Part shown: piece by piece, positions 4,002 to 32,000 of the stretch | Numbering within the stretch: position 1 is the stretch's first letter | How the letters are laid out: every line of letters starts with the position of its first letter | Source of the DNA: Candidatus Saganbacteria bacterium | Lineage (GTDB): Bacteria; Margulisbacteria; WOR-1; JAKLHX01 | Direction of reading: 5' to 3' | Assembly (NCBI GenBank): GCA_026387835.1 | Contig: JAPLKZ010000005.1 | Coordinates: 150,001-182,000, forward strand | Length of the DNA: 32,000 nucleotides | Notes under the pieces: model-generated | What the model was told of the DNA's origin: nothing | Seen by the model: only the letters and a program-made list of their open reading frames with translations | Database searches by the model: none | Position numbers and translations under genes: made by a program

Positions 4002-4727
4002 ATGCCGAAGATCACTGTAATACTGACTTCATACAATAAACCGGGTCTGGTCAGCCAGGCCATCAGGTCCGTTCTGGACCAGACCTGCAGGGACTTCGAG
4101 CTCATAGTTTGCGACGACAATTCAAATGAACAGACAAAAGCTGACATAAAACCGTTCTTTGCCGATCCCCGCGTGGTCTACCTGCAGTCGGATGTCAAAG
4201 AGGAAGAAAGACGGGAAAAGTGCAGGTACGCGCACATGATAAACAAAGCCCTTGAGATAGCGAAAGGGGAGTACATTTCGTACCTTTGCGACGATGATAT
4301 CTATTATCCCGAGAGGCTTGAGGTCATGGCAAAAGCACTTGATGAAGATCCAAAAAAGAACATCGTTTACGGGAAACAGAAGGTCGTGAGATTGTCCGGC
4401 AGGATCCTGGGTGTCACGACAGGCATCAGGGAGACGGTTGGCGTTACGTTCGAGGCAGGAGGGAATGTTGATCATAACTCGATAATGCACAGGAAATCAT
4501 GTTCGGACAAGGTCGGCGGCTGGGATGAAGGCAGGCAGTGCTGGGACAACGCGGACGAATATTTTTTCAAAAAACTCAACAAGCACTGGCCTTTCTACCC
4601 TATAGAGGAGGTCCTGGACGAGCACCGGTTGCACAAGAACAGCATGCAGTCGATCGTGGCTTATGAAAAGAGACTCAGTTCGAGGTTGTTGAAATGGTTT
4701 ACAGGACTGTTCAGCCAAATACCCTGA
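4002..4727 (+). CDS. Family 2 glycosyltransferase (GT-A)
   Basis: ITVILTSYNKPGLVSQAIRSVLDQTCRDFELIVCDDNSNEQT, and the DxD-type segment YLCDDDIYYP. Confidence 0.88.
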   Translation: MPKITVILTSYNKPGLVSQAIRSVLDQTCRDFELIVCDDNSNEQTKADIKPFFADPRVVYLQSDVKEEERREKCRYAHMINKALEIAKGEYISYLCDDDIYYPERLEVMAKALDEDPKKNIVYGKQKVVRLSGRILGVTTGIRETVGVTFEAGGNVDHNSIMHRKSCSDKVGGWDEGRQCWDNADEYFFKKLNKHWPFYPIEEVLDEHRLHKNSMQSIVAYEKRLSSRLLKWFTGLFSQIP

Positions 4728-5469
4728 TATATTCAGGAATGCTTTTTATCAGAGCGTCTATAATGCCCGCCTTTGCCTTGCGCTGCCTGAACCTTTTATT
4801 GAACACATAAAGTCTTGTGATGATCATCGCCTTTACCCTGATCTTTCCGGTGTTCATATTCCTGTCATGCATGCAGTAATCCGTCAGGGTCTCGTTCAGA
4901 TGGGCGATCTTTAATTTGTCTTTGAACCTTAACCACAGATCCCAGTCCTCTCCGCCGAAACGGATGATCTTATGGTCATCCCACATCCCTGTCTTTTCAA
5001 GAGCCTCTTTCCGGTGCATCATTGTGGATGGCATGGGCACGAAATAAAGGTCTTTTTCGGGCGGTTTTTTCGGGTTTGAAAAATCGGTAATACTCCGGAA
5101 TTTTCCGAACGACATGAATCTCGCATTGCTGTAAACGACATCAACGCAGCTGTTATTGTCAAGAAAATTTGCCAGTGTCTTGACATGGTCCTTGTGAAAA
5201 ATATCGTCGTGGTCGCAATAGGCGATATATCTTCCCTTTGAGGTCTTTATGCCGAGATTCCTGGCACTTGCCTGTCCGCCGTTTTGCTTTTTCAGATAGA
5301 CTATCCTGGGGTCTTTATAATCCAGGATAAAATTTTCGGTGTCATCTGTCGACCCGTCATTAATAATGATCAATTCAAAGTCCCTGTCACTTTGAGACAA
5401 TATCGCATCTATGGAAGGGCGGATATCTTTGCCGCGGTTATATGCGGCCATTATGATCGAAGTTCTCAT
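4711..5469 (-). CDS. Family 2 glycosyltransferase (GT-A)
   Basis: SIIMAAYNRGKDIRPSIDAILSQSDRDFELIIINDGSTDDT, and YCDHDDIF. Confidence 0.88.
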   Translation of the reverse strand: MRTSIIMAAYNRGKDIRPSIDAILSQSDRDFELIIINDGSTDDTENFILDYKDPRIVYLKKQNGGQASARNLGIKTSKGRYIAYCDHDDIFHKDHVKTLANFLDNNSCVDVVYSNARFMSFGKFRSITDFSNPKKPPEKDLYFVPMPSTMMHRKEALEKTGMWDDHKIIRFGGEDWDLWLRFKDKLKIAHLNETLTDYCMHDRNMNTGKIRVKAMIITRLYVFNKRFRQRKAKAGIIDALIKSIPEYIRVFG

Positions 5470-5478
5470 TGTTTTAGC

Positions 5479-6396
5479 TTAGCTGTCCCTGAATATTTCC
5501 TCAAAGATCTCCGGTAATCCCGGATATTTATTCTTTAATCCGAAATCCGACGGTGTAACGGTCTTATATTCCTGGTGGTATGCCTTAAGGCAGTATTTGT
5601 CCCATTCCCCGAGTTTTTTATCAAAGACCCTCGCGATAAGGTCGGCAGTCCCTTTTGAAAGACTCATTTGGAAACGGACAGGTATCTTGAAATACAGGCA
5701 AAGCGATCTTATCAGGTCACCGGCGGTTATTGCAATGTTACCGACAGTGAACTCTTTACTTCCGGTATCGTTCTTTAACAGATAAGCGGTTATCAGGGCG
5801 ATGTCCGCAGCATGGATGTAGTGGAACCTCAGGTCAGACGAGAAAAACCTTATAAGCCACAGCCATTTTTTTGCCTGCCTTAATGCAGTTGCAGCATGCG
5901 AATACGGATGGTCCTTGTCGCCGCCAAGTACCCAGGTGAGAAAAAGAGTATCGGTGCGGCCGGCTAAGGGTGAAGCTTTCAGGTGCTCATATAGTTTATA
6001 TTTTCCTTTTATGTACTCCGTTCCGCATGATAATACTTGCGGATCAGGCCTGTTGTTCTTATCGAGTATGCTGGCCGTGGAAAAATAGATGACCTTTTTA
6101 CAACGCGACGGATCAAGGTTCTCGAAAAGATCTATTGTAGATTCAAAATTGCCTGTTTGCGTACCCCAGTCCGCAAGAAGATGTATGCACGCATCCATTT
6201 CTTTCAGAAGGGATGAATATTTTTTGATATTCTTAAAATCATCATGTATGAGCTCAATGTTTGAAAGGTCAAACTTCGCTTTTTTAGGGTCCCTGATCAT
6301 CAGGTGGAGTCTGTAGCCGTCATCTTTTCTCAGTTCATCTATCAGATAATGTCCGACGCTTCCTGCCGCACCGGTGATGAAAACATTTTTTTTCAC
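5479..6396 (-). CDS. NAD-dependent sugar epimerase/dehydratase (extended SDR)
   Basis: N-terminal Rossmann motif VFITGAAGSVGHYL. It is 305 aa and embedded among glycosyltransferase genes. Confidence 0.8.
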   Translation of the reverse strand: MKKNVFITGAAGSVGHYLIDELRKDDGYRLHLMIRDPKKAKFDLSNIELIHDDFKNIKKYSSLLKEMDACIHLLADWGTQTGNFESTIDLFENLDPSRCKKVIYFSTASILDKNNRPDPQVLSCGTEYIKGKYKLYEHLKASPLAGRTDTLFLTWVLGGDKDHPYSHAATALRQAKKWLWLIRFFSSDLRFHYIHAADIALITAYLLKNDTGSKEFTVGNIAITAGDLIRSLCLYFKIPVRFQMSLSKGTADLIARVFDKKLGEWDKYCLKAYHQEYKTVTPSDFGLKNKYPGLPEIFEEIFRDS

Positions 6397-7535
6397 TTAA
6401 GCATTTCCTTGAATTTTGCCGTCCATTCTTTTGCGATCAGCGACCATGAATAATTCTCCCTGATGAATCTGACTGCCGCACAGCTCATTTTATTATATCT
6501 TCCCGGGTCTTTGAGAAGGGCTATAGTATCTGCAGCAAATCTTTCTTTGTACTCTTTGCTGAACGGGTCTCCGTCTATAAGGATGCCGGTTTCCCCGTTC
6601 CTGATGCTTTCCGGCATCGCACCCCGGTTCGACGTGATAACCGGACATCCGGCAGCCTGCGCTTCAAGCGCGGCTATGCAGCTGGTCTCGGCATAAAAGG
6701 CCGCGTGCGGCACTGCATGGCTGGGATACAAAAACAATCCCGACTTTTGAAGTTCCCCTGCAAGGTCGGAGTGTTTTCTTGTGCCTTCAAGATAGACCCT
6801 GTCCTGTTTTGTCTTTTCATATATTGTCTCTGCGACTATCCGGTCTTTTTCCTTCAGAACGCCAAGATCAAACCCGCAATAGATGTGAAGCGCCGCCTGT
6901 GGAACTTCACGTCTGATGAGCGGGAAGATATCGAGCAGCACGTCCAGTCCTCTCGCGGGCACGCTGGTGTAGACTAAACGATAAGGATTTTTCCTTGTGT
7001 CATTACCGTCAAAATACGGAAGATACGCGCCGTTCTTCGTGACGAATATCTTTTCTTTCCTGATGCCGAGCTTTTCCCCGCAGATCTTGCCGAGCCAGCC
7101 GCTGACAACAAAGAGACAATCACAGTACCTGTTCACAAGGGCCCCCGCTAACTTCAAAAACCCGGCCCCTAAATATTTTTTAAAACCCTTATAATTCCAG
7201 ACATTTGAAAAATCATCATGCCCCCACCAGATCCTTTTCTTTGCTTTAACGGGGAAGATAAAAGCGGGGAGGTCCCTGAAAGAAATGAAGATGTCGAAAT
7301 CCTTCTGTCTTGATATCTTTACGATCTCTGAAAGAGAATTGAACTGCCTGTAGTCCACGCCCTCATATATGCCTGCTTCTTTTCCGCAATTGTTAAAGAT
7401 GATTATTTCGTGGCCGAGACGGGCGAGTTCCCTTGTAAGGTAAAAGAGAGCTGATTCGCTGCCGCCGACAGGCCGTTCGAACACAGTATTCCCCGAGAAC
7501 GAGGTCGTCATCCTGGCCAGGATAAGGATCTTCAT
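6393..7535 (-). CDS. GT-B glycosyltransferase (GT4-like)
   Basis: C-terminal donor-binding region ETSCIAALEAQAAGCPVITSNRGAMPESIRNGETGILID. The N-terminus MKILILA is typical of GT4. Confidence 0.85.
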   Translation of the reverse strand: MKILILARMTTSFSGNTVFERPVGGSESALFYLTRELARLGHEIIIFNNCGKEAGIYEGVDYRQFNSLSEIVKISRQKDFDIFISFRDLPAFIFPVKAKKRIWWGHDDFSNVWNYKGFKKYLGAGFLKLAGALVNRYCDCLFVVSGWLGKICGEKLGIRKEKIFVTKNGAYLPYFDGNDTRKNPYRLVYTSVPARGLDVLLDIFPLIRREVPQAALHIYCGFDLGVLKEKDRIVAETIYEKTKQDRVYLEGTRKHSDLAGELQKSGLFLYPSHAVPHAAFYAETSCIAALEAQAAGCPVITSNRGAMPESIRNGETGILIDGDPFSKEYKERFAADTIALLKDPGRYNKMSCAAVRFIRENYSWSLIAKEWTAKFKEMLK

Positions 7536-8653
7536 CGCATCGCGGCCTTTCTGTAGAGTTCAAGCGTGTCGGACGCCATCTTCTTCGCGGAGAACAGTTT
7601 TGCCCTTGCAAGTCCTTTTTGTGACAACGCAAGCCTCCGTTCTTTGTTTGAAAGCAGGCCCCTGATCGCGTCCGCTATCCCGTCTATATTATACGGGTTA
7701 ACGAGGACCGCCGCATCACCGGCGACCTCAGGCATCGAAGAAGCATCCGATGTTATTACCGGTGTTCCGCAGGACATGGCTTCAAGGACCGGAAGTCCGA
7801 AACCTTCATAGAGAGAAGGCCAGACAAGCAGCTGCGCGCCGCTGTATAGCGCGGGGAGCTCTTTTTTCGGGACGTACCCGAGATATTTTACGGTGCCGGA
7901 CAGTTCAAGCCTTTTTATTTTATCGTTCAGGTCCTCTTTGAGCCATCTCTTGTCTCCCGCGATCACCAAGTCAGGAGGCGATTCATATTTAAGCTGGGAA
8001 TAAGCTTCAAGCACTCCCGAGATGTTCTTCCTTTCCTCTACCGGCCCCACAAAAAGGATGTAAGGCCTTTTTAAGCCGTATCTTGCCTTGACTAAACCGG
8101 TACGGTAGACCGTCTGCGGTACAAATTCATCGCCGATACCTTCATATATCACATTTATCTTCCCGGCATCCAGGGTAAAAAACTTAAGGACCTCTCTCTT
8201 CACAAAATCCGAAGGTACGATGACGGTGCCGGTGTTTTTCAGGACCTTTGCAAGGCGGTCTCTAAAAAAAACAGACCTGTCTTCGGGGTATAGTTCAGGC
8301 CTGGCTATCGAAGAGATATCGTGGACAGTGACGATATGGCTGCGGTCAGGTTCAGGCGTCGTAAGGGCAAAGCAGGCATCGTGGTAGACATCGATCCTCT
8401 GTCTTGCCGCGGACGAAAAAATACCGGGATTGACCAGGTTATGCTGTTTGAAATCGATACGGTTCTTCTTGAACAGGGGGACGGCAGAGCTCAGGACCAG
8501 GAATCTGTCTTTTTTTTCGACGACGCAAAGATATTTGATGAGATTGTAAGTATACGCCGATATGCCGTCGGCGTGCCCGAAAAGGCAGTTCCCCTCGATA
8601 CCGATGTTGAGCCGCTTATTACTTTGCATCCGGATAATATTTTTCCCTGTCAA
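7532..8653 (-). CDS. GT-B glycosyltransferase (GT4)
   Basis: YEGFGLPVLEAMSCGTPVITSDASSMPEVAGDAAVLVNP. The start is uncertain (8653 or Met9 at 8629). Confidence 0.88.
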   Translation of the reverse strand: MTGKNIIRMQSNKRLNIGIEGNCLFGHADGISAYTYNLIKYLCVVEKKDRFLVLSSAVPLFKKNRIDFKQHNLVNPGIFSSAARQRIDVYHDACFALTTPEPDRSHIVTVHDISSIARPELYPEDRSVFFRDRLAKVLKNTGTVIVPSDFVKREVLKFFTLDAGKINVIYEGIGDEFVPQTVYRTGLVKARYGLKRPYILFVGPVEERKNISGVLEAYSQLKYESPPDLVIAGDKRWLKEDLNDKIKRLELSGTVKYLGYVPKKELPALYSGAQLLVWPSLYEGFGLPVLEAMSCGTPVITSDASSMPEVAGDAAVLVNPYNIDGIADAIRGLLSNKERRLALSQKGLARAKLFSAKKMASDTLELYRKAAMR

Positions 8654-14862: not shown

Positions 14863-15794
14863 TTACGGGGTAGCTTGGCAAGGAATGACGGACTTTTCAA
14901 AGATTTTCAGGTCCGGACAGCTGCTTTCAAGTTCTATCTGTTTGGGGGTTATGAAGAAAGATCCGACGCCCTTATTTCCGCTGAGGTTGAGAAAGAAATA
15001 TTTATCATCAACATTGAATACCCGTACAAGGGGATCATGGCCCATCACTATCCTTTCGACGCCCATCCTTTTAAGGTCGCCGGGGTCATAACTGAAACTG
15101 CCCCCGGGTTCTATGTTCCGGCTATAAAGAAATCCTTCTTTGCCGAGCATCCGCCAGAAGATATTTGCGCAGCCGGTGGTATCCGAGGCAAGTGCAGTTC
15201 TGAGCTCGGATTCCAGTTCTTTGAGTACCTGGATGCCTGATGCGGTCCCGTTCCTGACCTTCTCGGACGCGAGCAGATATTTGAGGCCGGAATGCATATA
15301 AAGCGTACCGAGATCGTCGATATAATACAGGCGCATATTATCGGCCATCCATTTTGCGGTCTCGATCAACTTCCTGTTGCTTAAAATGTTGTTCAAAACA
15401 GTTTGGAAAAGACTTTTGCACAGAGCCGGGCGATTTCTTGTCCATGGCCTGAGGATATAATCCCCTTCTGACACTTCAGAGAACAATGCCAAAAAAATAT
15501 CGGCCCTTATCACGTCCGCGCGTTTTGACAGGGAAAATTCATCGGCCAGGCTTGTCCCGCCGTTAGTGAGCCAGTTAAGCGCCCATTCCATATTACCCCT
15601 CATCGCCAGAGTGAACATGATCTGTCTATCAGGTCTCCCAAAGGAACGGTTCGTGCCGCTCTTAATGAAAAATATACGGCCCTGTCACACCAATGGTCTA
15701 AGCCGTGCGCGTCGCCGAGAGCGGCAGTCCCGATGCGGCGCAATATAACAGCAGGTGCCTGCTGTCTTACTATTTTATGTTGGATAGGATCCAT
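14863..15794 (-). pseudogene. PPP-family (lambda-phosphatase/PrpA/ApaH-like) metallophosphoesterase, split across two frames with an internal deletion
   Basis: ORF 15600..15797 carries motif I (LGDAHG) and motif II (GDLIDR), then stops. ORF 14863..15618, in a different frame, continues with MRGNMEWALNWLTNGG (GNHE with His replaced by Met) and VMGHDP. The DR-to-RGN spacer is about 7 aa, against about 18 aa in lambda PP and PrpA. The ATG at 15794 is preceded by the RBS GGGAGGG. Confidence 0.65.
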
Positions 15795-23364: not shown

Positions 23365-23964
23365 ATGGCTGTAACACCCGAGATGGTGAAAGAACTGCGT
23401 GAAAAAACGGGCTGTGGGATGATGGACTGCAAAAAAGCCCTTGAAGAGTCCGGGGGCGATATGGCAAAAGCGGCGGAGCATCTCAGAAAAAAAGGCCTTG
23501 CCTCAGCGGCTCAAAAAGCGGAAAGAGCGGCCTGCCAGGGCATTATCGAATCTTATATACATCTCAATTCTAATATCGGTGTGATGATCGAGCTGAACTG
23601 CGAAACAGATTTTGTCGCTAGGAACCCTGAATTCAAAGAGCTTGCAAGGGATATCGCGATGCAGGTGTGCGCGGCCTCGCCGATGTATGTCTCAAGAGAG
23701 TCCGTGCCGCAGGCGCATCTGGACCATGAAAAAGAAATAATAAAGGCCCAGTCAAAGACAGAAGGAAAGCCTGAGCATATCATAGAAAAGATGATGAAAG
23801 GCAGGATCGAAAAGTTCTACAGCGAGGTCTGCCTGGTAGATCAGCTTTTCATAAAGGACCAGGATAAAAAGATAAGCGACCTCATAAAAGAAAAGATAGC
23901 CAAGTTCGGCGAGAATATAGTAATAAAGCGCTTCACAAGATATCAAGTTGGAGAAAAGATCTAA
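23365..23964 (+). CDS. tsf: Elongation factor Ts (short form)
   Basis: [27 protein letters not shown] prefer the ATG at 23365 over the TTG at 23359 given in the track. Confidence 0.92.
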
Positions 23965-26677
23965 TACGCCCGTAATCTACCTCATAGATGGGAACTCTCT
24001 GGTCTACAGGGCTTTCTACGCCCTTCCCGACACGATGAAGACCGCTTCAGGCATCACAACAAACGCAATTTACGGTTTTACTAACATGCTTTTAAGGCTT
24101 CTCGATGACAAGCCGGATTACATCGCGATAGCTTTTGACAGGCCGGAACCCACTTTCAGGCACAAAGAATACTCTGAGTACAAAGCCCAGAGGCAGAAAG
24201 CTCCCGATACGTTAAGGCAGCAGTTCCCTTACATCAAGGAGTTGATCTCGATGTTTTCGATCCCGGTATTCGAGATGGCCGGTTTTGAAGCTGACGACAT
24301 CGTGGCCACGATCGCAAAAAAGGCCGAGAAAGACGGGATGAAAGCGGTGATAGTCACGGGAGACAAAGACACTTTTCAGCTCATCAATGACAGTATAAAT
24401 GTTCTTACCGCGGTAAAAGGCATAACCGAGACCATGCTTTACGACAGCACTAAGGTCAAAGAAAGGTTCGGGATAGAACCCAAATTCCTTCTTGATTATA
24501 AATCCCTTGCCGGTGACCCGTCGGATAACATACCCGGAATCCCGGGGGTGGGGGAAAAGACGGCGGTATCCCTGATATCAAAATTCGGTGACCTTGAGTC
24601 GATAATAAAGAACGCCGATACTCTTGAAGGTAAACTTAAAGACAAGATAAAAAACAATGTCGGGATCGCCCGTCTTTCAAGAAGGCTGGCCGAACTGGTG
24701 ACGGACATGCCGCTGGACATAGATTTCAAGAAACTTGAAAGGAAAGAAATAGACTGGCCTTCAGTGTTTCCGCTCCTTGAAAAGTTCGAGTTCAAAAGCC
24801 TTCTGAAAAAATACGGCAAGGACCAGACAATCGGTTTGTTCGCACAGGAAAGCAGGGAAAAAGTCAGGCAGGCCGACGAGAATACGGATTATAAGTTGAT
24901 AGAGAACGGCAAAGACCTCGATTCTCTTATCGGAGAGATCAGATCAGCAGGCGCATTTGCTTTTGATACGGAGACTACATCACTTGATACAATGACTGCC
25001 AAGCTTATAGGCATTTCAATATCCTGCAAATTATGCAAGGCTTCTTTTATCCCTGAAGGTATTATTTCAAAGTTTGGAAATGCAGAAAAACTGAAGGATA
25101 TATTTGCGGACTCAGAAATAAAAAAATACGGCCATAATCTTAAATATGACATAGAGATCCTTAACGGTCACGGCATAGAAGTCCACGGTATAGATTTTGA
25201 CACTATGGTAGCCGCATATATTCTGGACCCGACTGCAGGGAAATTCGGCTTAAAGTTCCTCGGAGCAAAGTATTTCGGAAAGATCATGACCAGCTATGAA
25301 GAGCTCATGCTTGCTGACAATGCAAAGGATATCAAGAACACGGATATTGAAGATCTCAAAAATTATGCCTGTGCCGATGCGGATATCACATTCCGGCTCC
25401 AGGAAGTGCTGCGTAAAGAACTGACGGAAAAAGGGCTTCTCAGCATATTTTCAAATATCGAAGTGCCCCTGATCGAGGTCCTTGTGAAGATGGAGGAGGA
25501 CGGCGTCTCGATCGACGAGGCAAAGCTTTCTTTCCTGTCAAAGGACGTTTCCAAAAGGATCGAACGCCTTGAGATAGAGATATATGCCATCTGCGGCGAG
25601 AAGTTCAATATCAACTCTCCAAAACAGCTTGCCGAGATACTTTTTAATAAGCTGAAGCTCCCGAAAGGCAGAAAGACAAAGACGGGACAGTCAACTGACG
25701 CGTCAGTCCTTGAATCCCTGGCCGGCAATTTCGAGATTGCGCAAAAACTTCTCGAGTACAGGCAGCTCGCAAAGCTGCAGAGCACTTATATCGACGCGCT
25801 TCCCCAGATGGTCAACAAGAGGACGGGAAGGATACACACGTCATTTAACCAGATCATCACGGCGACAGGCCGCCTTTCAAGCAGCGATCCAAACCTGCAG
25901 AACATACCGATAAGATCGGACCTCGGCAAGATGATAAGGGATGCTTTTGTTCCTGCAAATGACGGGGACATGATCCTGTCCGCCGATTATTCTCAGATAG
26001 AGCTACGCATACTCGCGCACCTCAGTAAAGATCCGGAACTGATAAAGGATTTTATCGAAGACAAGGATATTCACTCCGCTACCGCGGCTGACATATTTGG
26101 TGTCAAATTCGAAGAAGTAACAAAGGAGATGAGGACCTTCTCGAAAACGATAAACTTCGGCATTGTTTACGGTATGAGTTCCTACGGTCTCGCGAAAACA
26201 CTCAACATCAAACCCAGAGAGGCTGAAGAATACATCTCTAAATATTTCAACAAATATAAAGGTGTAAAGGCGTTCATGGACAACACGATTCTTTTTGCAA
26301 GAAAGAACGGCTATGTCGAGACCCTTCTCGGCAGGAGAAGGTATTTAAGGAATATCGACAGCTACAACCAGAACGAGAGGCAGGCTGAAGAGAGGATAGC
26401 TGTCAACACACCGGTGCAGGGAACAGCCGCCGATATAATCAAAGCGGCTATGATAAAGATCTATAATAGACTGAATGTAAGGGCGGGTTTAAAACCCGCC
26501 CCTCTCAGATCAAAAATGATACTTCAGATCCACGATGAGCTTGTGTTCGAATGCCCGAAGGAAGAAGTCGAACAAGTTAAGACGCTTGTCAGGGATCTCA
26601 TGTCAACGGCCGTTCCTCTTGATGTCCCCGTCAAAGTCGATATCGGTGTTGGGAAAAGCTGGGGCCAGGCGAAGTAA
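23948..26677 (+). CDS. polA: DNA polymerase I (5'-nuclease, 3'-5' exonuclease and polymerase domains)
   Basis: [15 protein letters not shown]. Exo motifs [17 protein letters not shown] and YACADAD. Pol motif A DYSQIELR and motif [10 protein letters not shown]. The TTG start at 23948 overlaps the tsf end, and the start is uncertain. Confidence 0.93.
26654..26677 (+). repeat. Direct repeat copy 1 (the authentic polA 3' end, AAAAGCTGGGGCCAGGCGAAGTAA)
   Basis: A 24-bp exact match to 28652-28675. Confidence 0.9.
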
Positions 26678-26753
26678 AAATACCATTGTCCTTCGTACTC
26701 AGATTCTTAATAAATACTTTTAATTAGCGCCTTACCGAAATAATGTGGACAGG

Positions 26754-26784
26754 TGAAATTCTTGGCGGAAAAACACGATGATTA
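26754..26784 (+). promoter_or_regulatory. Alternative-sigma-type promoter, copy D: TGAAAT-N16-CGATGATTA, upstream of the 615-aa gene
   Basis: Sequence ggTGAAATtcttggcggaaaaacaCGATGATTAtattgataacatATG. The -10 tail is more divergent than in the other copies. Confidence 0.55.
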
Positions 26785-26796
26785 TATTGATAACAT

Positions 26797-28644
26797 ATGA
26801 ATATTCAGGGATTTACAATGAGAAATATTTCCGCTTCCATGAGGAGCGGGTGTATCCCGGCGAGGGCACTGACTGAATTTGACAGGCAAAGATTTCGTAT
26901 CGTTAAAGGTCTTCAGGATCCGTACGGCCGGTTTGTTTATGCCCCGGAATCTGCGAGCATTTCCATGACACGAAAGTGCAATTCAACCTTTTGCCCTCAA
27001 TGTGCCCCTGATTCTACAGCAGGTTCAAACCTTTCTCTAAGCAGAGAACAAGTCAAAAAAATTATGGGCGATCTCGCAGAGATTCCCATCAATATGCTAT
27101 ATATCGAGGGTGGCGAACCGACACTTGAACTTGATAATACATTACTGGCGTCCCGTCTTGGAGCGCATATTTTAAACATGTACGGATTTAGTCTCGAGAG
27201 CAATCTCTCGTGGGCATCTACAGAGGATAGCACAACTGAAATGCTGTCAAGGCTGGCAACCCAGGGGATCGAGCGAAATAGAAAAATCTTTGTGACAGGA
27301 GGGAACCTCGACTCTTTTCATGATTTTGTCCCATTGCAAAATCACATCAATCTTGTGCGTCAATTCTGGCGATATTTCCCAAGCGGGGAAATGGTATTCT
27401 CCCGTTTGGAAGACCCTAACGACGACTCGGTAACAAGATTTATCCAACTTCTTAAGGAACAAGGCTGGCGTTGCGATTATAAGGAGATCCCGACAGACCC
27501 AGAATTATATCAAACTCCGGCAGTTGAAGAGATAAATATTGATATGGGGTCCCATGCGGGAGGTAAAAGAAAGATCTGCATACAGCATAAATTCCCTGTC
27601 CTTGTAGGCAGGGGAAAACAGCTGAGGCAAACCCCTTACTTGGACTGGCTAAACGCAGCAAGAGGAAAGCAGGTCGACATGCGAGAAGATAAAAGCACTA
27701 TATTTCCTGAAGCTGTCGAAAGCGAAGGGCAAATCGTGAGCATAGGATGGGACGGTCTCGTTTATCTTAATCCTATGTTCATGCATACGCAGACGTATCC
27801 GCTGGGCTCGATCGACGAGGAAGACCTGTATTCGATAATCAAGAGGGCAAATAAAGATCCGCTAGTGAGACGGCTGGTGGCAAGAGGATTCGGAAGTATT
27901 TTTAGGGTCGCTGCAAAGATATTTCCGCAGCTTGCGCATTTTGACCCAAGGCTGGGCATAAATGAAATCTGCATAGATACTCTTCAAAATCCTGAGCAGA
28001 ATCTTGCAATACTTGAAGGGATATTGAGAGAAGAAGGAGAGTTAACTACTGCAGCGGCAAGGTTGAAATCCGCCCCGGATAGTATTGACATAAAAGCTGC
28101 ATTACAGGACTATGCGAGCCGGGACTGGACAGGAATCGAGAATACTTTTGTATGGTGCGCAACAGATAAGGTCGCGGAGCTTACGGTAGAAAAGCAGATT
28201 GAGACGATCAGCGCAACGGACCTCAAAGGATTTGAGACGCAGATCCTGTTCTCTCTTGTAATGAGAGCAGAAGAAAAAAGGAAAAAAGAGCTGCTGTGCA
28301 TGGCGGTGGCGGATAAAGCACTTTTATTAAAACTTTTTGGCCCGCCGATGTATTCGGATTATATTGACGGGCAAAAAGAGTTTGCCTGTAAAGTATTTGC
28401 GGGCATAATTGCGGAAAAGGGGAGTATCCCTCTTCCTGCAGACGAAAAAGAAGAAAAACCGTTTTTAGACGTGCTTGTGGCATTATTAAACATCGGCGCG
28501 ATAGATATTTTCTTTAAAAAATATGAAGTATTGCCTGGCACTGATCAAGCAAAGATGAATAAAATCATTTTAAAAGACGCCGATCTTTTCTCTGTAATTG
28601 TTGACAGATTAGGGGACGCATGGATGAAGAAAGGCCCGAAATGA
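26797..28644 (+). CDS. Radical-SAM-like protein with non-canonical CX4CX2C and a long helical C-terminal extension
   Basis: SMTRKCNSTFCPQCA (Cys61/66/69, nt 26977-27003) is followed by the SAM-binding-like LYIEGGEPTL, then SLESNLSW, VTGGNLDSFHD, and a Cys-less SPASM-like stretch VSIGWDGLVYLNPMF...PLGSIDEEDLYSII. The last 230 aa or so are unrecognised. Confidence 0.5.
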   Translation: MNIQGFTMRNISASMRSGCIPARALTEFDRQRFRIVKGLQDPYGRFVYAPESASISMTRKCNSTFCPQCAPDSTAGSNLSLSREQVKKIMGDLAEIPINMLYIEGGEPTLELDNTLLASRLGAHILNMYGFSLESNLSWASTEDSTTEMLSRLATQGIERNRKIFVTGGNLDSFHDFVPLQNHINLVRQFWRYFPSGEMVFSRLEDPNDDSVTRFIQLLKEQGWRCDYKEIPTDPELYQTPAVEEINIDMGSHAGGKRKICIQHKFPVLVGRGKQLRQTPYLDWLNAARGKQVDMREDKSTIFPEAVESEGQIVSIGWDGLVYLNPMFMHTQTYPLGSIDEEDLYSIIKRANKDPLVRRLVARGFGSIFRVAAKIFPQLAHFDPRLGINEICIDTLQNPEQNLAILEGILREEGELTTAAARLKSAPDSIDIKAALQDYASRDWTGIENTFVWCATDKVAELTVEKQIETISATDLKGFETQILFSLVMRAEEKRKKELLCMAVADKALLLKLFGPPMYSDYIDGQKEFACKVFAGIIAEKGSIPLPADEKEEKPFLDVLVALLNIGAIDIFFKKYEVLPGTDQAKMNKIILKDADLFSVIVDRLGDAWMKKGPK

Positions 28645-28651
28645 TATCTGT

Positions 28652-28675
28652 AAAAGCTGGGGCCAGGCGAAGTAA
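28652..28675 (+). repeat. Direct repeat copy 2 (displaced remnant of the polA 3' end)
   Basis: Identical over 24 bp to 26654-26677. With upstream GATATCtGT it reads D-I-C-K-S-W-G-Q-A-K-stop in the polA frame, against the authentic [12 protein letters not shown]-stop. Confidence 0.9.
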
Positions 28676-28702
28676 TCGCCCCATTATTCCGCTCAAAATG
28701 GA

Positions 28703-28733
28703 TGAAATAATTTAAATAAATAATCGATATATT
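28703..28733 (+). promoter_or_regulatory. Alternative-sigma-type promoter, copy E: TGAAAT-N16-CGATATATT; the ATG lies 6 nt after CGATAT
   Basis: Sequence gaTGAAATaatttaaataaataatCGATATATTtatATG. There is no room for a leader or a Shine-Dalgarno sequence. Confidence 0.6.
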
Positions 28734-28736
28734 TAT

Positions 28737-30185
28737 ATGCAATTCAAATGGATACATGAAGGGCCGATATATCAGGCGATGGTTAAAGACCATGGAGGTT
28801 TTACCGCTATAAAAAGAAGATTGCCTTATCTTGCGGAAAGGAATATAAAGACTATTTGGTTATGCGGCGTCCAAGAGAACCATAACGGGGTCTCGCCCTT
28901 CGCCTTAACGGACCCGCTGGCAGTCGAAAAAAAATATGGTACCGAGGACGATCTAAGGGATCTGATCAATACCGGGCATGAAAAGCACGGGTTCAGGTTC
29001 ATCGGTGATTCCATATTGAACCACGTTTCAAGAAGCAGTGCATTACTAAGGAGCCATTCTGACTGGTTCTTAAGATACCCGAGCGGTTGGATAAGATATG
29101 GCACTGACCTTAACAATGAAAGCGTAGATAAGCCTTTTGTGCCGGGAAAAGATTGTTGGAGGTTCGAGGATACGGCGCAATTTGATTTCCTGGCCCCGGG
29201 ATTAAAACAGTATTTGATAGACTCCGGATATTTCATGCTTAACCTAGGCTTTGACGGGCTGAGGATGGATGCGCCAATGGCGCTCCTAAAAAATAGAATG
29301 AAATATAATTGGTACCGGGGCAGAGAACATGAAGTGGATAAAGTGTTCCGGGATGAACTCCTCAGAGAGTTCATATATCTTATGAGGGAAAGAAGAAATG
29401 ATGCCTGTTTTGTGGCGGAATCTTTTCAGATGCATAAAGAGATGATCTCTTGCGGGATCGATGTGGCCTATGATCCGGGATGCGTATATAAGGCATACGA
29501 TGTTTTTAAACGTCTTGCAGATGTGGAGACATTCGATAGATATCTCAGCGACATCTGTTCGAATGGAGGTGAAAGTTCGTTCTGCATGGCCCATTTCAAG
29601 GACGGACATGATATAAGGGATACCCGCTGCAATGACGAAGGAATGAAAAAACCAAGGAACCTTGACCCTGCCGAGCTCAAGGTGGTGGCGACGCTTATTG
29701 CGACCATGCCCGGGGTGCCGATGTTATTCAACGGGGAGCTTGAGGCGGTCAGAGGATACGGCTATGACAGGGAAGGCACTTCTTTTATAGATTTCGGCAA
29801 CATCGACGGTGACCTTGCCTCTTTCAATTATGCCCTTTCCAAATTGTGGCGCATGCCGCTGTTCAGACAAGGCGGAACCGATTATCTTCCTACAAGGGAC
29901 GGATGGACATCCGGCGGTATAAGGGCATTTGCGAGGCAGTTCAACGGCGAAAAGGCTGTCGTCGCGGTAAATATGCATTCAGATTACGCGTGGACAGCTT
30001 ACAGGTCATTTGGTGTCGATCCTCTTCTCTGGGGTCTTGGGGACGGCCGTAAGATCATGGTGCGTGACATGATGACCGGCCAGCTGTTCCATGAGACGTC
30101 AGCCGGTGATCTGAGGACGAACGGACTTAAAGTCGGGCTTTGGCCCAAGGGTTCTCAGGTCCTGCAGCTGATACCGAAAGATTGA
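28737..30185 (+). CDS. Alpha-amylase-family (GH13) catalytic-domain protein, cytoplasmic
   Basis: All four GH13 regions are present: GDSILNHVS (I), GFDGLRMDAPM (II, nucleophile Asp), FVAESF (III, Glu), and AHFKDGHD (IV). There is no signal peptide. Confidence 0.8.
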   Translation: MQFKWIHEGPIYQAMVKDHGGFTAIKRRLPYLAERNIKTIWLCGVQENHNGVSPFALTDPLAVEKKYGTEDDLRDLINTGHEKHGFRFIGDSILNHVSRSSALLRSHSDWFLRYPSGWIRYGTDLNNESVDKPFVPGKDCWRFEDTAQFDFLAPGLKQYLIDSGYFMLNLGFDGLRMDAPMALLKNRMKYNWYRGREHEVDKVFRDELLREFIYLMRERRNDACFVAESFQMHKEMISCGIDVAYDPGCVYKAYDVFKRLADVETFDRYLSDICSNGGESSFCMAHFKDGHDIRDTRCNDEGMKKPRNLDPAELKVVATLIATMPGVPMLFNGELEAVRGYGYDREGTSFIDFGNIDGDLASFNYALSKLWRMPLFRQGGTDYLPTRDGWTSGGIRAFARQFNGEKAVVAVNMHSDYAWTAYRSFGVDPLLWGLGDGRKIMVRDMMTGQLFHETSAGDLRTNGLKVGLWPKGSQVLQLIPKD

Positions 30186-30222
30186 TCCTTCCGGCGCATT
30201 TCTTAGAGCACCTAAAAAATAC

Positions 30223-30253
30223 TGAAATTTCAGATATTTCCCGACGATAGATA
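30223..30253 (+). promoter_or_regulatory. Alternative-sigma-type promoter, copy B: TGAAAT-N16-CGATAGATA, upstream of the 256-aa orphan
   Basis: Sequence acTGAAATttcagatatttcccgaCGATAGATAtatg. It has the same CTGAAATTTCAG palindrome (30222-30233) as copy A. Confidence 0.65.
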
Positions 30254-30304
30254 TATGAGTTCAAAAAGAGCTCAATTAATAAGTTCCAATAAAGGAGAAA
30301 TGCG

Positions 30305-31075
30305 ATGAGTATATATGCTTTTCAAGCTGGATCAAAAAGAATAGATATTGGCGGACGTCTGGCAATGGACGTGCTTCCCGCGGCTCATCTTAAGAGGTTC
30401 CTGGCTAACGGGATCCTTCCGAGAACCCGGCTTTACGGAGATTTACGCACAGTCGATCTCAGAAATCCTAATATGCCGGTCGAAGTGGAGGAGGCGGCAC
30501 GCCTTCAGAAATTCCTCGGCAAGGAAGCATATGCCAAAATGGCCGCCCGCGAGCCTATTCAACTTGCTGTCAGGACTTCGGTAAACACGCCAAAATATGC
30601 TATGAATGAATATCCTTATAAATATATATCGCTTGCATTTTCCCTTTTTGGCAGCCCCGGCGAAGGACGGGCATATAATATGGTCATAACTCCGTATGCC
30701 GGGCTAAGTCATCCGGTCATGGAATTTAACTGGGCGGATATATTTTCGCACGGCACAGACTGTTTACCGTATTTCAATCTGACAAGACTTGAGATCATCA
30801 AGAACCCAGACACTAACTCGACTTCAAAATTCCTTGTCAGGAGAATGCAGCTGGTTGACAGGCATGACCAGGGACTGGCAGCTGTTTTTTTCAAGAACAC
30901 TCCGTTATCCGCCTGGACGGGACTTGTCGATCCTCCCGGAACGAAAGGGAAGGATAACAGATATATGGGAATGTATTTTTTGGGCAATTTAGCCTGCGCG
31001 CTTGACCGTATCGAGAAAATGTTCCCTGTGCATCAAGCTCTTGATCGCGATTTGAGAAAGAAAGAAGAGGCTTAG
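30305..31075 (+). CDS. Hypothetical protein, no recognisable domain
   Basis: 256-aa ORF with the RBS AAAGGAG 7 nt upstream of the ATG. No overlapping ORF on either strand is longer (longest 92 aa), and the composition is non-repetitive. Confidence 0.7.
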   Translation: MSIYAFQAGSKRIDIGGRLAMDVLPAAHLKRFLANGILPRTRLYGDLRTVDLRNPNMPVEVEEAARLQKFLGKEAYAKMAAREPIQLAVRTSVNTPKYAMNEYPYKYISLAFSLFGSPGEGRAYNMVITPYAGLSHPVMEFNWADIFSHGTDCLPYFNLTRLEIIKNPDTNSTSKFLVRRMQLVDRHDQGLAAVFFKNTPLSAWTGLVDPPGTKGKDNRYMGMYFLGNLACALDRIEKMFPVHQALDRDLRKKEEA

Positions 31076-31117
31076 GATTAAGCAATATCTGTTTATTTGT
31101 TAAAACCTGTTTAACGG

Positions 31118-31594
31118 CTAAAAAGTTGTAGTTCGCCCCTTTTTATCAGATCTTAACGTTCTGAAGAAATCTTTTAATATATCCATGCAATCTTCTTTGC
31201 AAACGTCCTTGATAATTTTTACCTTGTGATTTAACCGCTTGCTCTTTAAGATGTTCATGATGCTTCCCGCAGCCCCGGCTTTCGGGTCAGCAGTGCCATA
31301 GATCAAAGTCCTTATCCTTGAAAGGACCATGGCTCCGGCGCACATGGGGCAGGGCTCGAGCGTTGTGTACAGATCGACCTTGTTAAGTCTCCATGTTTTC
31401 ATCTTTTTTACTGCTTTTTGCAGGCACAGAAGCTCGGCATGGGCGGTCGGGTCATTCCTTTTTTCTTTCTCGTTGTGAGCCCTTGCGATGACCTTGCCGT
31501 CGAGGACCGCCACTGCGCCGATGGGAACGTCGCCGGTCTTAAGTGCTTTGTTGGCCTCTTTGATGGCAGACCGCATAAAATGTTCATGTTTCAT
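31118..31594 (-). CDS. tadA: tRNA adenosine(34) deaminase
   Basis: Zinc motifs HAELLCL and PCPMCAGA. It is 158 aa. Confidence 0.92.
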   Translation of the reverse strand: MKHEHFMRSAIKEANKALKTGDVPIGAVAVLDGKVIARAHNEKEKRNDPTAHAELLCLQKAVKKMKTWRLNKVDLYTTLEPCPMCAGAMVLSRIRTLIYGTADPKAGAAGSIMNILKSKRLNHKVKIIKDVCKEDCMDILKDFFRTLRSDKKGRTTTF

Positions 31595-31600
31595 TCTTCA

Positions 31601-31606
31601 ATTTTA
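31601..31606 (-). promoter_or_regulatory. -10 box TAAAAT, 6 nt before the tadA ATG
   Basis: The minus strand reads aaggTAAAATtgaagaATG. Confidence 0.45.
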
Positions 31607-31616
31607 CCTTTCTCTA

Positions 31617-31625
31617 TGCTAAAAT
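31617..31625 (+). promoter_or_regulatory. Extended -10 box TGcTAAAAT, 11 nt before the pyrR ATG
   Basis: Sequence taTGCTAAAATgaaaggcacaaATG. Confidence 0.5.
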
Positions 31626-31636
31626 GAAAGGCACAA

Positions 31637-32000
31637 ATGGCAAAAGAAAAGATAATAATGGACGGCCCGGATATAGCAAGAGCCGTCAAAAAAATAGCGC
31701 ATGAGATAATCGAAAAGAACAAAGGCGCCAAGAACATCGTTTTCGTGGGGATTCTTGAAGGCGGCTACCCGCTTGCGAAGAGGATTGCCAATATCATTAA
31801 AAGTGCAGCGGGTGAAAACATCGACGTTGGCGGGATCGACGTGTCTTTTTACAGGGACGATCTCATGGTAAAAGGGAAGAATATAACACCGAAAAAATCA
31901 GATATCCTATTCTCTGTGGACAAGAAGACCGTTATCCTCGTCGATGATGTGCTTTTCCACGGGAGGACCGTGCGTGCCGCCCTCGACAACCTGAACGATT
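31637..32000 (+). CDS. pyrR: Bifunctional pyrimidine regulatory protein / uracil phosphoribosyltransferase, partial (runs off the right edge)
   Basis: My translation reads MAKEKIIMDGPDIARAVKKIAHEIIEKNKG...VFVGILEGGYPLAKRI...VILVDDVLFHGRTVRAAL, which includes the PRPP-binding loop. Confidence 0.85.
   Translation, partial: MAKEKIIMDGPDIARAVKKIAHEIIEKNKGAKNIVFVGILEGGYPLAKRIANIIKSAAGENIDVGGIDVSFYRDDLMVKGKNITPKKSDILFSVDKKTVILVDDVLFHGRTVRAALDNLND

Follow-up and report, generated by a model that had tools for sequence, protein, structure and literature searches.

The locus raises the question of how the final codons of a DNA polymerase I gene (polA) come to be present twice in a 32-kb stretch of DNA (the window, i.e. 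the whole stretch that was analysed), once in place and once behind a neighbouring gene, so that the two copies bracket that gene. The balance of our evidence tips, modestly, towards the view that a conservative recombination event inserted ~2 kb of foreign DNA at the extreme 3' end of polA and left the 24-bp pair as its scar; the unit would then be a real yet fairly ordinary insertion scar, of a known kind of system. The features concerned are:

23948..26677, + strand: polA (DNA polymerase I, 909 aa), the target gene, intact
26654..26677, + strand: repeat copy 1 (attL-like), exact 24-mer, in frame, the last 7 codons and TAA of polA
26678..28651, + strand: bracketed segment of 1,974 bp between the copies, presumably the inserted DNA
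26678..26817, + strand: non-coding leader of the segment
26818..28644, + strand: cargo radical SAM gene, 608 aa (615 aa if the start is 26797)
28642..28650, + strand: GATATCTGT, possible decayed polA Asp-Ile-Gly codons, overlapping the cargo stop codon
28652..28675, + strand: repeat copy 2 (attR-like), exact 24-mer, a displaced, non-coding polA end
28676..28736, + strand: flank after copy 2, leading into a GH13 gene

As the sequence-only reading had stated, the 24-mer AAAAGCTGGGGCCAGGCGAAGTAA occurs exactly twice in the window (26654-26677 and 28652-28675), and a search for the further copies it had asked about, at up to three mismatches, returned none in the window. One hundred dinucleotide-preserving shuffles failed to reproduce the match and, by analytic calculation, ~2e-6 perfect 24-nt pairs would be expected in 32 kb. 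Both edges of the repeat are sharp, the right edge being the last base of the polA stop codon. Copy 1, which encodes KSWGQAK-stop, is the true end of polA, as had been claimed: the open reading frame contains the Pfam DNA_pol_A domain (4.5e-166) together with 5'-3' (5_3_exonuc included) and 3'-5' exonuclease domains, its product is identical to P0003, the DNA polymerase I of Candidatus Saganbacteria, and the KSWGQAK C-terminal tail is native-like, being kept in the PolA of Saganbacteria and Margulisbacteria. With these last eight codons (seven plus stop) on the polA side, polA stays intact. Copy 2 begins 7 nt past the TGA (28642-28644) of the open reading frame 26797-28644, and no start codon is present upstream in its frame.

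Local alignment of the upstream flanks pairs GATATCgGT with GATATCtGT (p ~0.015-0.07, depending on flank length), so that the degenerate upstream extension of the repeat proposed earlier is alignable but statistically borderline; GATATCTGT matches polA positions 26639-26647 at 8 of 9 bases, and its sequence is only suggestive of a decayed remnant of the polA codons Asp-Ile-Gly. The proposed downstream resemblance (CCATTgtCC and CCATTattCC) did not hold up, lying at chance level (p ~0.17-0.38).

That the duplication is an assembly artefact might be suspected because the source is a metagenome-assembled genome, and the sequence-only reading had asked for this to be checked. However, four Logan assemblies made independently from four different runs (L082, L083, L085 and L086) contain both copies base for base, with identical flanks, which excludes mis-assembly; two more contigs (L084 and L087) contain copy 1 with an identical right-hand flank, five contigs match the window at 100% identity, and the assemblers' k-mers are longer than the 24-nt repeat. 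The chance of an artefact is accordingly negligible, and the duplication is confirmed as real. The filled state is seen in each of the six contigs of this species, and the unit appears to be fixed in the sampled population.

It is also highly improbable that copy 2 is no scar and is instead functional, i.e. a terminator, operator or RNA element that the polA and radical SAM genes have in common at their ends. Whilst both copies do stand at gene ends, and a 5-bp hairpin (GGCGA-AGTAA-TCGCC) can form from copy 2 and its flank, the right arm of that hairpin is missing at copy 1 and the hairpin, which spans the edge of copy 2, is not significant. RNA structure at copy 2 is no better than in shuffles, the folding energies of both contexts equalling shuffled values (z = -0.34 and -0.09); neither copy coincided with a called terminator-like site, and there was no Rfam match.

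The bracketed segment contains a single gene. The open reading frame described earlier, encoding 615 aa, exists (26797-28644), but the start of the gene is more likely at 26818, as called in the Logan contigs and suggested by homologue alignment, giving 608 aa. The product is a radical SAM enzyme of EpeE/YydG-like type, extended at its C-terminus by an additional helical domain. Its Pfam Radical_SAM score (25.4 bits) falls below the 29.5 cut-off, and its place in the superfamily is indicated by the three-cysteine motif and an EpeE-like predicted fold: C54, C59 and C62 (residues counted from the 26818 start), in CX4CX2C spacing, are invariant in five family members, a PDB profile search matches YydG at 4e-10, and the AF2 model (pLDDT 80.5) has EpeE as its best Foldseek match, with further radical SAM enzymes also matching in fold. 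The N-terminal ~380 residues superpose on the EpeE/YydG peptide epimerase (PDB 8ai1-8ai6) with a TM score of 0.78-0.80 at 13-15% identity; the cargo protein differs in its CX4CX2C cluster motif, in the added helical C-terminal domain of ~230 residues, and in that no precursor peptide gene was identified beside it. The family alignment contains no conserved cysteine past the first motif that could serve an auxiliary cluster (SPASM/twitch) and, with no precursor gene identified either, assignment as a RiPP-type radical SAM maturase was not supported. The sole small open reading frame near the cargo (32 aa) overlaps the gene start and is an unsupported call.

The promoter with which the gene had been credited could not be verified: the leader contains no convincing promoter, and the sole sigma-70-like match near the gene start (26790-26819, 9/12) is no better than shuffled expectation.

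Horizontal acquisition of the cargo is supported. A search of 1.84 billion representatives gave only four proteins below 1e-30, and this tiny, patchy family is scattered across unrelated housekeeping contexts. The codon fit of the gene (-1.188) is the second-worst in the window and its GC3 (0.446) the second-lowest, neighbouring genes lying at ~0.55-0.65; the proposed composition check thus finds codon usage atypical, although the overall GC of the segment resembles that of its flanks. The cargo is moreover absent from the syntenic polA-tadA slot of the four nearest relatives (L088-L091), which have other genes after polA. That slot is variable as a whole, in that the entire interval 26678-31117, and not the bracketed gene alone, is lineage-specific. 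Its remainder and right border comprise:

28737..31075, + strand: rest of the lineage-specific slot (GH13 gene and 256-aa gene)
28737-30185, + strand: GH13 alpha-amylase-family gene (Pfam Alpha-amylase, 4.7e-17)
30305-31075, + strand: gene encoding 256 aa, function unknown
31118..31594, - strand: tadA-like deaminase gene (Pfam MafB19-deam and dCMP_cyt_deam_1), the conserved right border of the slot

The tadA-like gene is 62-72% identical to the syntenic gene of L088-L091; the slots of these relatives contain no homologue of the GH13 gene or of the 256-aa gene, and no further copies of the polA or tadA end occur within 28737..31075. As to the empty site that had been predicted for related genomes, the relatives do lack the cargo, but no exact empty site is present in the available data because the next-closest polA is merely 64% identical.

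These observations bear on a reading in which there was no insertion at all, the radical SAM gene being an old resident and copy 2 a secondary templated patch or partial duplication, arising e.g. by template switching. Such a history would fit the lack of an empty site, the identical arrangement in every sampled population, the flank-like overall GC, and a polA-tadA slot that varies between lineages anyway. We nevertheless judge it distinctly unlikely: if the gene were resident, at least some relatives should carry it, a perfect 24/24 match in non-coding sequence points to something recent, and a patch ending exactly at the stop codon is left unexplained, as are, for so rare a family, the bracketed topology and gene-end neighbours of the two homologues described below (L099 and L001).

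Under the favoured reading, integration at the polA 3' end, the incoming ~2-kb DNA would have brought its own copy of the last eight polA codons (seven plus stop), and crossover would have taken place within this common sequence, as in attB x attP recombination. One product would be the attL-like junction, at which polA still ends in KSWGQAK-stop, and the other the attR-like junction, with the second, now non-coding copy behind the cargo. The empty junction would then have read GGTGTTGGG + 24-mer + TCGCCCCATTATTCC and the circle junction GATATCTGT + 24-mer + AAATACCATTGTCC; from this topology, the flank 28676..28736 is presumed to have directly followed polA before insertion. The right edge of the repeat would coincide exactly with the stop codon because incoming DNA brings a replacement gene end only, which is the expected pattern. 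The attL/attR-like footprint recognised from the sequence is therefore sound as regards a bracketed, acquired single gene, an intact polA and a stop-codon edge, but we infer, rather than demonstrate, site-specific recombination by an integrase that formerly existed. The cargo protein stops 7-25 residues short of its homologues, with the stop codon of its gene overlapping the junction, which could also be compatible with an untidy, illegitimate junction.

No gene for a tyrosine or serine recombinase, excisionase or transfer function was found among the listed window open reading frames that were scanned, nor did the precomputed annotation available for the L082 flanks show one, and no transposase domain was found in the window; a repeat scan of the region gave no terminal inverted repeats at the segment ends, and no tRNA was found. 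The earlier statement that no integrase, transposase or terminal inverted repeats are seen agrees with these results. The segment itself has no space for a recombinase gene, nearly all of it being filled by the radical SAM open reading frame. Neither the cargo nor the 24-mer was found in phage, plasmid or IMG/VR sequences, and no related integrase-bearing element occurred among these or the metagenome loci.

Several known classes were considered and rejected. A transposon or insertion sequence is not indicated, there being no transposase, no inverted ends, and a duplication of 24 bp. The repeat is polA coding sequence with a fold z of ~0 and no integrase was found in the window, unlike an integron cassette. 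A dif-like site comprises 28 bp, in which two inverted recombinase arms flank a 6-bp centre (consensus ATAA-N6-TTAT); the 24-mer lies in coding sequence, lacks this core, and contains only a 4-bp inverted pair (CTGG..CCAG), so that an Xer-dependent element (IMEX / dif) was likewise discarded.

The closest correspondence is to integrative elements whose target is the 3' end of a housekeeping protein gene, where one flanking repeat contains the gene end (PMC5704250). IMEs and genomic islands with tyrosine integrases enter tRNA or housekeeping protein genes at the 3' end, whilst dusA-specific islands use the gene 5' end (PMC5704250, PMC4482086). Similar to these, the polA unit has a direct repeat (the 24-bp pair including the polA end), an identity block that stops at the gene end, an element-supplied replacement end, and cargo marked as foreign by its rarity, codon fit, GC3 and absence from the relatives' slot. 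However, in IMEs and islands the integrase adjoins the attachment site, whereas the polA unit has no integrase of its own. The unit would hence be either a decayed remnant or reliant on an enzyme encoded elsewhere, as are CIMEs, i.e. decayed ICE/IME units in which attL and attR persist without integration or transfer genes (PMC5704250). If the repeats are taken as att sites, the polA unit has the same composition as CIMEs: direct repeats around cargo, one of them holding the 3' end of an undisrupted housekeeping gene, with no recombinase inside. Unlike CIMEs, it is only 2 kb long with a single gene and has no known integrase-bearing relative; polA as target and Saganbacteria as host have not previously been described for this kind. 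None of 80 other polA loci has its gene end repeated downstream, so that polA is no known recurrent target.

Further evidence comes from homologues of the cargo elsewhere. In L099/L100, a 28-nt direct repeat (24/28 identical) stands on either side of the homologue; it occurs at only these two places in 15 kb, and three of its four mismatches are adjacent, in the centre. The L099 and window units have no common end sequences, their repeats are unrelated, and the window leader (26678..26817) has no similarity to that of the L099 homologue. In L001, the homologue lies next to three single-gene units in an array, between which stand copies of the pnp 3' end (87, 62 and 42 nt). These copies all have the stop codon as one edge and still read as the PNPase C-terminal peptide with conservative changes; the stop-codon-edged gene-end pattern is found four times at the pnp 3' end, beside a cargo homologue. 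The unequal lengths and common edge fit successive integrations, each bringing in a gene end, and not target-site duplications. The homologue sits beyond the last pnp copy and may be a resident neighbour of the array, not a cassette. No convincing flanking repeat was found at four other homologue contexts.

A target-site duplication at polA, in which a transposition-like or break-repair event cut the strands 24 bp apart, inserted the segment and filled the overhangs, would account for a perfect, sharply bounded repeat without significant downstream similarity, and for a cargo open reading frame that reaches the junction; a sequence-independent mechanism would also explain the different targets of the L099 and window units. 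We consider it quite improbable. Usual target-site duplications measure 2-14 bp, far less than 24-28 bp, a right edge at the stop codon would be coincidence, the pnp copies cannot arise in this way, and neither a transposase, nor terminal inverted repeats, nor ends common to the window and L099 units were seen.

A RecA-type Campbell insertion, by a single crossover within the 24-bp identity between polA and a circular DNA with a polA end, and with no dedicated integrase, is unlikely. Its topology equals that of the favoured integration and it accords with the lack of an integrase nearby; units could also exit and re-enter via recombination between repeats, and the long, unequal pnp copies (42-87 nt) are as portable homology would be. 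About 24 bp is roughly the minimal length reported for efficient RecA-dependent recombination in E. coli, yet marginal for homologous exchange; it is hard to see how foreign DNA would gain a polA end without prior site-specific or imprecise excision, and the adjacent central mismatches of the L099 repeat would hinder homologous exchange.

Finally, the window, L099 and L001 might together represent an undescribed cassette system in which single genes move without a recombinase of their own, a proposal that we regard as rather unlikely. Such a system would insert at the 3' ends of essential genes (polA, pnp), each time regenerating a stop-codon-terminated end, and would form integron-like arrays with the gene end itself as attachment site, driven by a trans-acting recombinase or short-homology recombination. 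The L001 units resemble integron cassettes in being single-gene, tightly packed, in one orientation and separated by a repeated site; in contrast to the structured attC of integrons, that site is the coding 3' end of a housekeeping gene, and the window copies have no significant fold, with no intI-like gene or attI in the window. The L001 pnp array is also similar to the Tycheposons of Prochlorococcus, whose repeat integrations produce arrays of partial target-gene copies, successive integrations displacing older units outward (bioRxiv 10.1101/2020.12.28.424599); Tycheposons are reported at tRNA-linked islands and have tyrosine recombinases and replication modules, whereas here no recombinase was seen and the ends of protein genes are involved.

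The duplication of the polA end that the sequence-only reading had placed around a single gene is real: the 24-mer AAAAGCTGGGGCCAGGCGAAGTAA occurs at two positions, with no third site in the window at up to three mismatches, and no match to the pair was obtained in shuffled sequence. The features concerned are:

23948-26677, polA ORF (909 aa, closed by copy 1), encoding all DNA polymerase I domains
26654-26677, copy 1 of the 24-nt repeat, the end of polA
26678-28651, bracketed segment (1,974 bp) holding one gene, the cargo
26797-28644, ORF of the cargo gene
28652-28675, copy 2 of the 24-nt repeat, non-coding
28737-30185, GH13 gene
30305-31075, gene for a 256-aa protein

Seven Logan contigs, separate assemblies of different runs, encode an identical PolA protein. 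Six of them were examined: four span both copies with identical flanks, and the other two stop short of copy 2 but match in copy 1 and its right flank. The duplication is thus not an assembly artefact, a concern that the sequence-only reading had raised, and none of the six same-species contigs contains an empty site. Five are 100% identical to the window, whilst the sixth (L082, ERR15302166) differs solely by an 85-nt indel 11 kb away: with the extra bases, at window 15620/15621, the minus-strand ORF 14863-15618 grows from 251 to 338 aa, and they represent either an indel in the population or a mistake in one of the assemblies.

The product of the 909-aa ORF has the same sequence as a Candidatus Saganbacteria protein named DNA polymerase I, and the tail encoded up to the stop at copy 1 is typical for PolA of this group, so the 24-mer is native polA sequence. 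The Lys codon with which the repeat begins was considered as a sign of foreign origin and rejected, GVGKSW being common across the wider PolA family. The repeat is exactly 24 nt long, its left edge falling on a codon boundary and its right edge on the final base of the polA stop codon, and copy 2 begins 7 nt past the stop of the cargo ORF. Likeness between the flanks, reported earlier on both sides, is borderline upstream (GATATCgGT vs GATATCtGT, p 0.015-0.07) and at chance level downstream (p 0.17-0.38). The best candidates for a degenerate third copy in 28676-31700 reach 14/24 on the plus strand, within the window background, and 16/24 on the reverse strand. The sequence GAAAAGATATCTGTAAAA at the 3' end of ORF 2065-2991 (2959-2976) matches 28638-28655, running into copy 2, at 17/18 positions; we treat this as chance, the expectation for the window being about 0.4 such pairs.

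A perfect core, flanks without significant likeness and an edge exactly at the stop codon fit recombination at a gene end, in which incoming DNA with a matching gene-end copy would recombine with the end of polA. Recombination of this kind is how integrative elements usually get into the 3' ends of tRNA or housekeeping protein genes while leaving the genes intact, and cis-mobilizable elements (CIMEs) are units that keep attL and attR after later loss of the integrase (PMC5704250). That an insertion duplicated the polA end, by whatever mechanism, we regard as probable; the narrower proposal of the sequence-only reading, that an insertion left its footprint at the 3' end of a gene and preserved that gene, stands as the best-supported explanation, at slightly better than even chances, and for its mechanism we infer site-specific recombination at the polA end. 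Before integration, polA would have been followed directly by TCGCCCCATTATTCC and then the GH13 gene; the junction of an excised or empty state would read GATATCGGTGTTGGGAAAAGCTGGGGCCAGGCGAAGTAATCGCCCCATTATTCC, and that of an excised circle CCGAAATGATATCTGTAAAAGCTGGGGCCAGGCGAAGTAAAAATACCATTGTCC. As reported earlier, the bracketed gene is single, and neither integrase, transposase nor inverted terminal repeat was found with it, nor were a tRNA, an Rfam element or a third 24-mer copy. A RecA-type single crossover on a short shared stretch, here the 24 nt, is rather unlikely in our estimation, as is a secondary patch duplication of the polA end as the origin of copy 2. It is very improbable that copy 2 is a functional RNA or terminator, a role without support: nothing above background came of the readings as a structured RNA, terminator, promoter, Rfam element or tRNA.

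The nearest other PolA proteins are 58-64% identical. A genome-collection scan with the C-terminal half of PolA returned only distant phyla (at most 57% identity), missing the source genome itself, and was therefore useless for locating an empty site. Four relatives' loci (L088-L091) share the order rpsB-tsf-polA-[slot]-tadA(-)-PRTase-addA-addB, the slot being the polA-tadA interval (26678-31117 in the window). It holds one gene of unknown function (~340 aa) in three of these loci and three such genes in the fourth; the radical SAM, GH13 and 256-aa genes of the window slot are homologous to none of them. Because the slots are filled by non-homologous genes, the cargo, and likewise the whole of 26678-31117, is lineage-specific. 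The comparison with relatives proposed by the sequence-only reading yields no exact empty site in the available data. Neither polA-end nor tadA-end copies occur in the relatives' slots, and in the window slot there are no copies of the tadA 3' end and no likeness among the four intergenic spacers. The polA end is repeated downstream in 0 of 80 diverse polA loci. In this Saganbacteria group the slot is variable: lineages differ in the genes they carry there, most of them without a known function, and the ~340-aa occupant is fast-evolving (L089 vs L090/L091, 30% identity).

The cargo gene probably starts at 26818, as homologue alignment suggests, giving a product of 608 aa; the NCBI record (NTZ10_01755, a 516-aa hypothetical protein) starts at Met100 of the ORF, which removes the radical SAM cysteine motif. 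Judged by sequence and structural model, the product is a radical SAM enzyme. Three cluster cysteines are invariant across the family, in the PDB the family profile matched the YydG/EpeE peptide epimerase (4e-10), and a confident model (pLDDT 80.5) can be superposed on EpeE across the first ~380 residues with TM 0.78-0.80; a C-terminal helical domain of ~230 residues has no structural match, and the Pfam match lies under the curated cut-off. Neither auxiliary-cluster cysteines nor a precursor peptide was found. The family is tiny: a word-based search gave one homologue among 5.8 billion proteins, HMMER four proteins below 1e-30 among 1.84 billion representatives, and a JGI metagenome scan with the family profile one true relative (L092). 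IMG/VR scans with the profile and the 24-mer returned nothing, a degenerate polA-end pattern gave one chance match there, within an unrelated ORF (L106), and tblastn of the cargo against phage and plasmid collections gave no match. In composition, codon usage is the second-worst fit in the window to pooled usage and GC3 is 0.446 against ~0.55-0.65 in neighbouring genes, although overall GC is unremarkable. The promoter previously assigned to the cargo is not borne out, there being no promoter signal above background; a putative lineage promoter motif, CGATAATTATAT, has 6 matches vs 3.2 expected, which is not significant. PADLOC defence models gave the radical SAM protein only a marginal pVip match (E 0.002), the GH13 protein a GlgB-type model (C3a214, 7.6e-13), in keeping with its amylase-family domain, and the 256-aa protein none.

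Seven other contexts of cargo homologues were recovered (L001, L092, L099/L100, L101, L102-L104, L105), all of them housekeeping neighbourhoods without recombinases. In L001 (Logan SRR29660421) the last 29 pnp codons are present four times, as the real end and copies of ~87, 62 and 42 nt, in an array at 4678-8194:

8108-8194, minus, real pnp end
6798-6884, pnp-end copy
5585-5671, pnp-end copy
4678-4764, pnp-end copy

All copies end at the stop codon, their common edge, and when translated still yield the C-terminal peptide of PNPase with conservative substitutions; each comes after one gene, either the radical SAM homologue or a gene without a known function. Three units are bracketed, each made up of one uncharacterised gene (372, 272 and 234 aa), and no integrase occurs in the 14.7-kb locus. 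Successive integrations are known to produce arrays of displaced target-gene ends (bioRxiv 10.1101/2020.12.28.424599); the unequal copies and common edge fit this model and argue against target-site duplication, and a staggered-break duplication of the polA end we consider improbable. The radical SAM homologue P0002 abuts the array with its stop codon; it lies just outside the last copy and so may be the oldest unit or a resident neighbour.

In L099/L100, homologue P0185 lies between GCCTGAAATTGCGCCGCAATTCTGACGA and GCCTGAAATCCGGCCGCAATTCTGCCGA, a 28-nt direct repeat with 24/28 identities (L099 7962-7989 and 10158-10185; L100 7720-7747 and 9916-9943), both copies intergenic between mnmG and rpe. 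These are the sole two copies in 15 kb, scoring above all 1,000 shuffles; of the four mismatches, three lie side by side. The palindrome AATTGCG-C-CGCAATT is found within copy A. This unit and that of the window have no common non-coding ends and their repeats are unrelated; the remaining four contexts have no convincing flanking repeat. Given the parallels in L099 and L001, there is a modest chance of a recombinase-less single-gene cassette system aimed at housekeeping gene ends. In L102 (5193-7797, JGI 3300044996) the homologue P0124 lies beside a VapBC-like toxin-antitoxin pair (PIN and RHH), a gene for an SMC-like ATPase and another, of 910 aa, that is rich in internal repeats, surroundings that may be a defence-type neighbourhood.

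Base by base, the locus shows an uncultured Saganbacteria lineage acquiring the gene for a rare enzyme with its essential polymerase gene unharmed, and polA, together with pnp in a second organism, joins the protein-gene ends able to accept foreign DNA. New here are the target (polA), the cargo (a single EpeE-like radical SAM gene) and the host (Saganbacteria). If a single mechanism lies behind the parallels, small single-gene units that lack an integrase and rebuild gene ends would give little-known bacterial lineages a cheap means of gene flow, one that existing island finders miss because they seek integrases and tRNA genes; if the unit is merely a decayed island, it is a tidy, ordinary example.

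Elsewhere in the window, a 61-nt stretch recurs with 70% identity at 1995-2055 and 30199-30259, upstream of two unrelated genes of unknown function (2065-2991 and 30305-31075); within the near-exact core AAAAAYACTGAAATTTCAG lies the perfect palindrome CTGAAATTTCAG, and the stretch may be a shared operator or promoter. Positions 1-1939, comprising a DUF4116 repeat protein gene (755-1939, minus) and adjacent sequence, consist of 75-nt periodic repeats, with 79% identity between 438-724 and 1638-1924.
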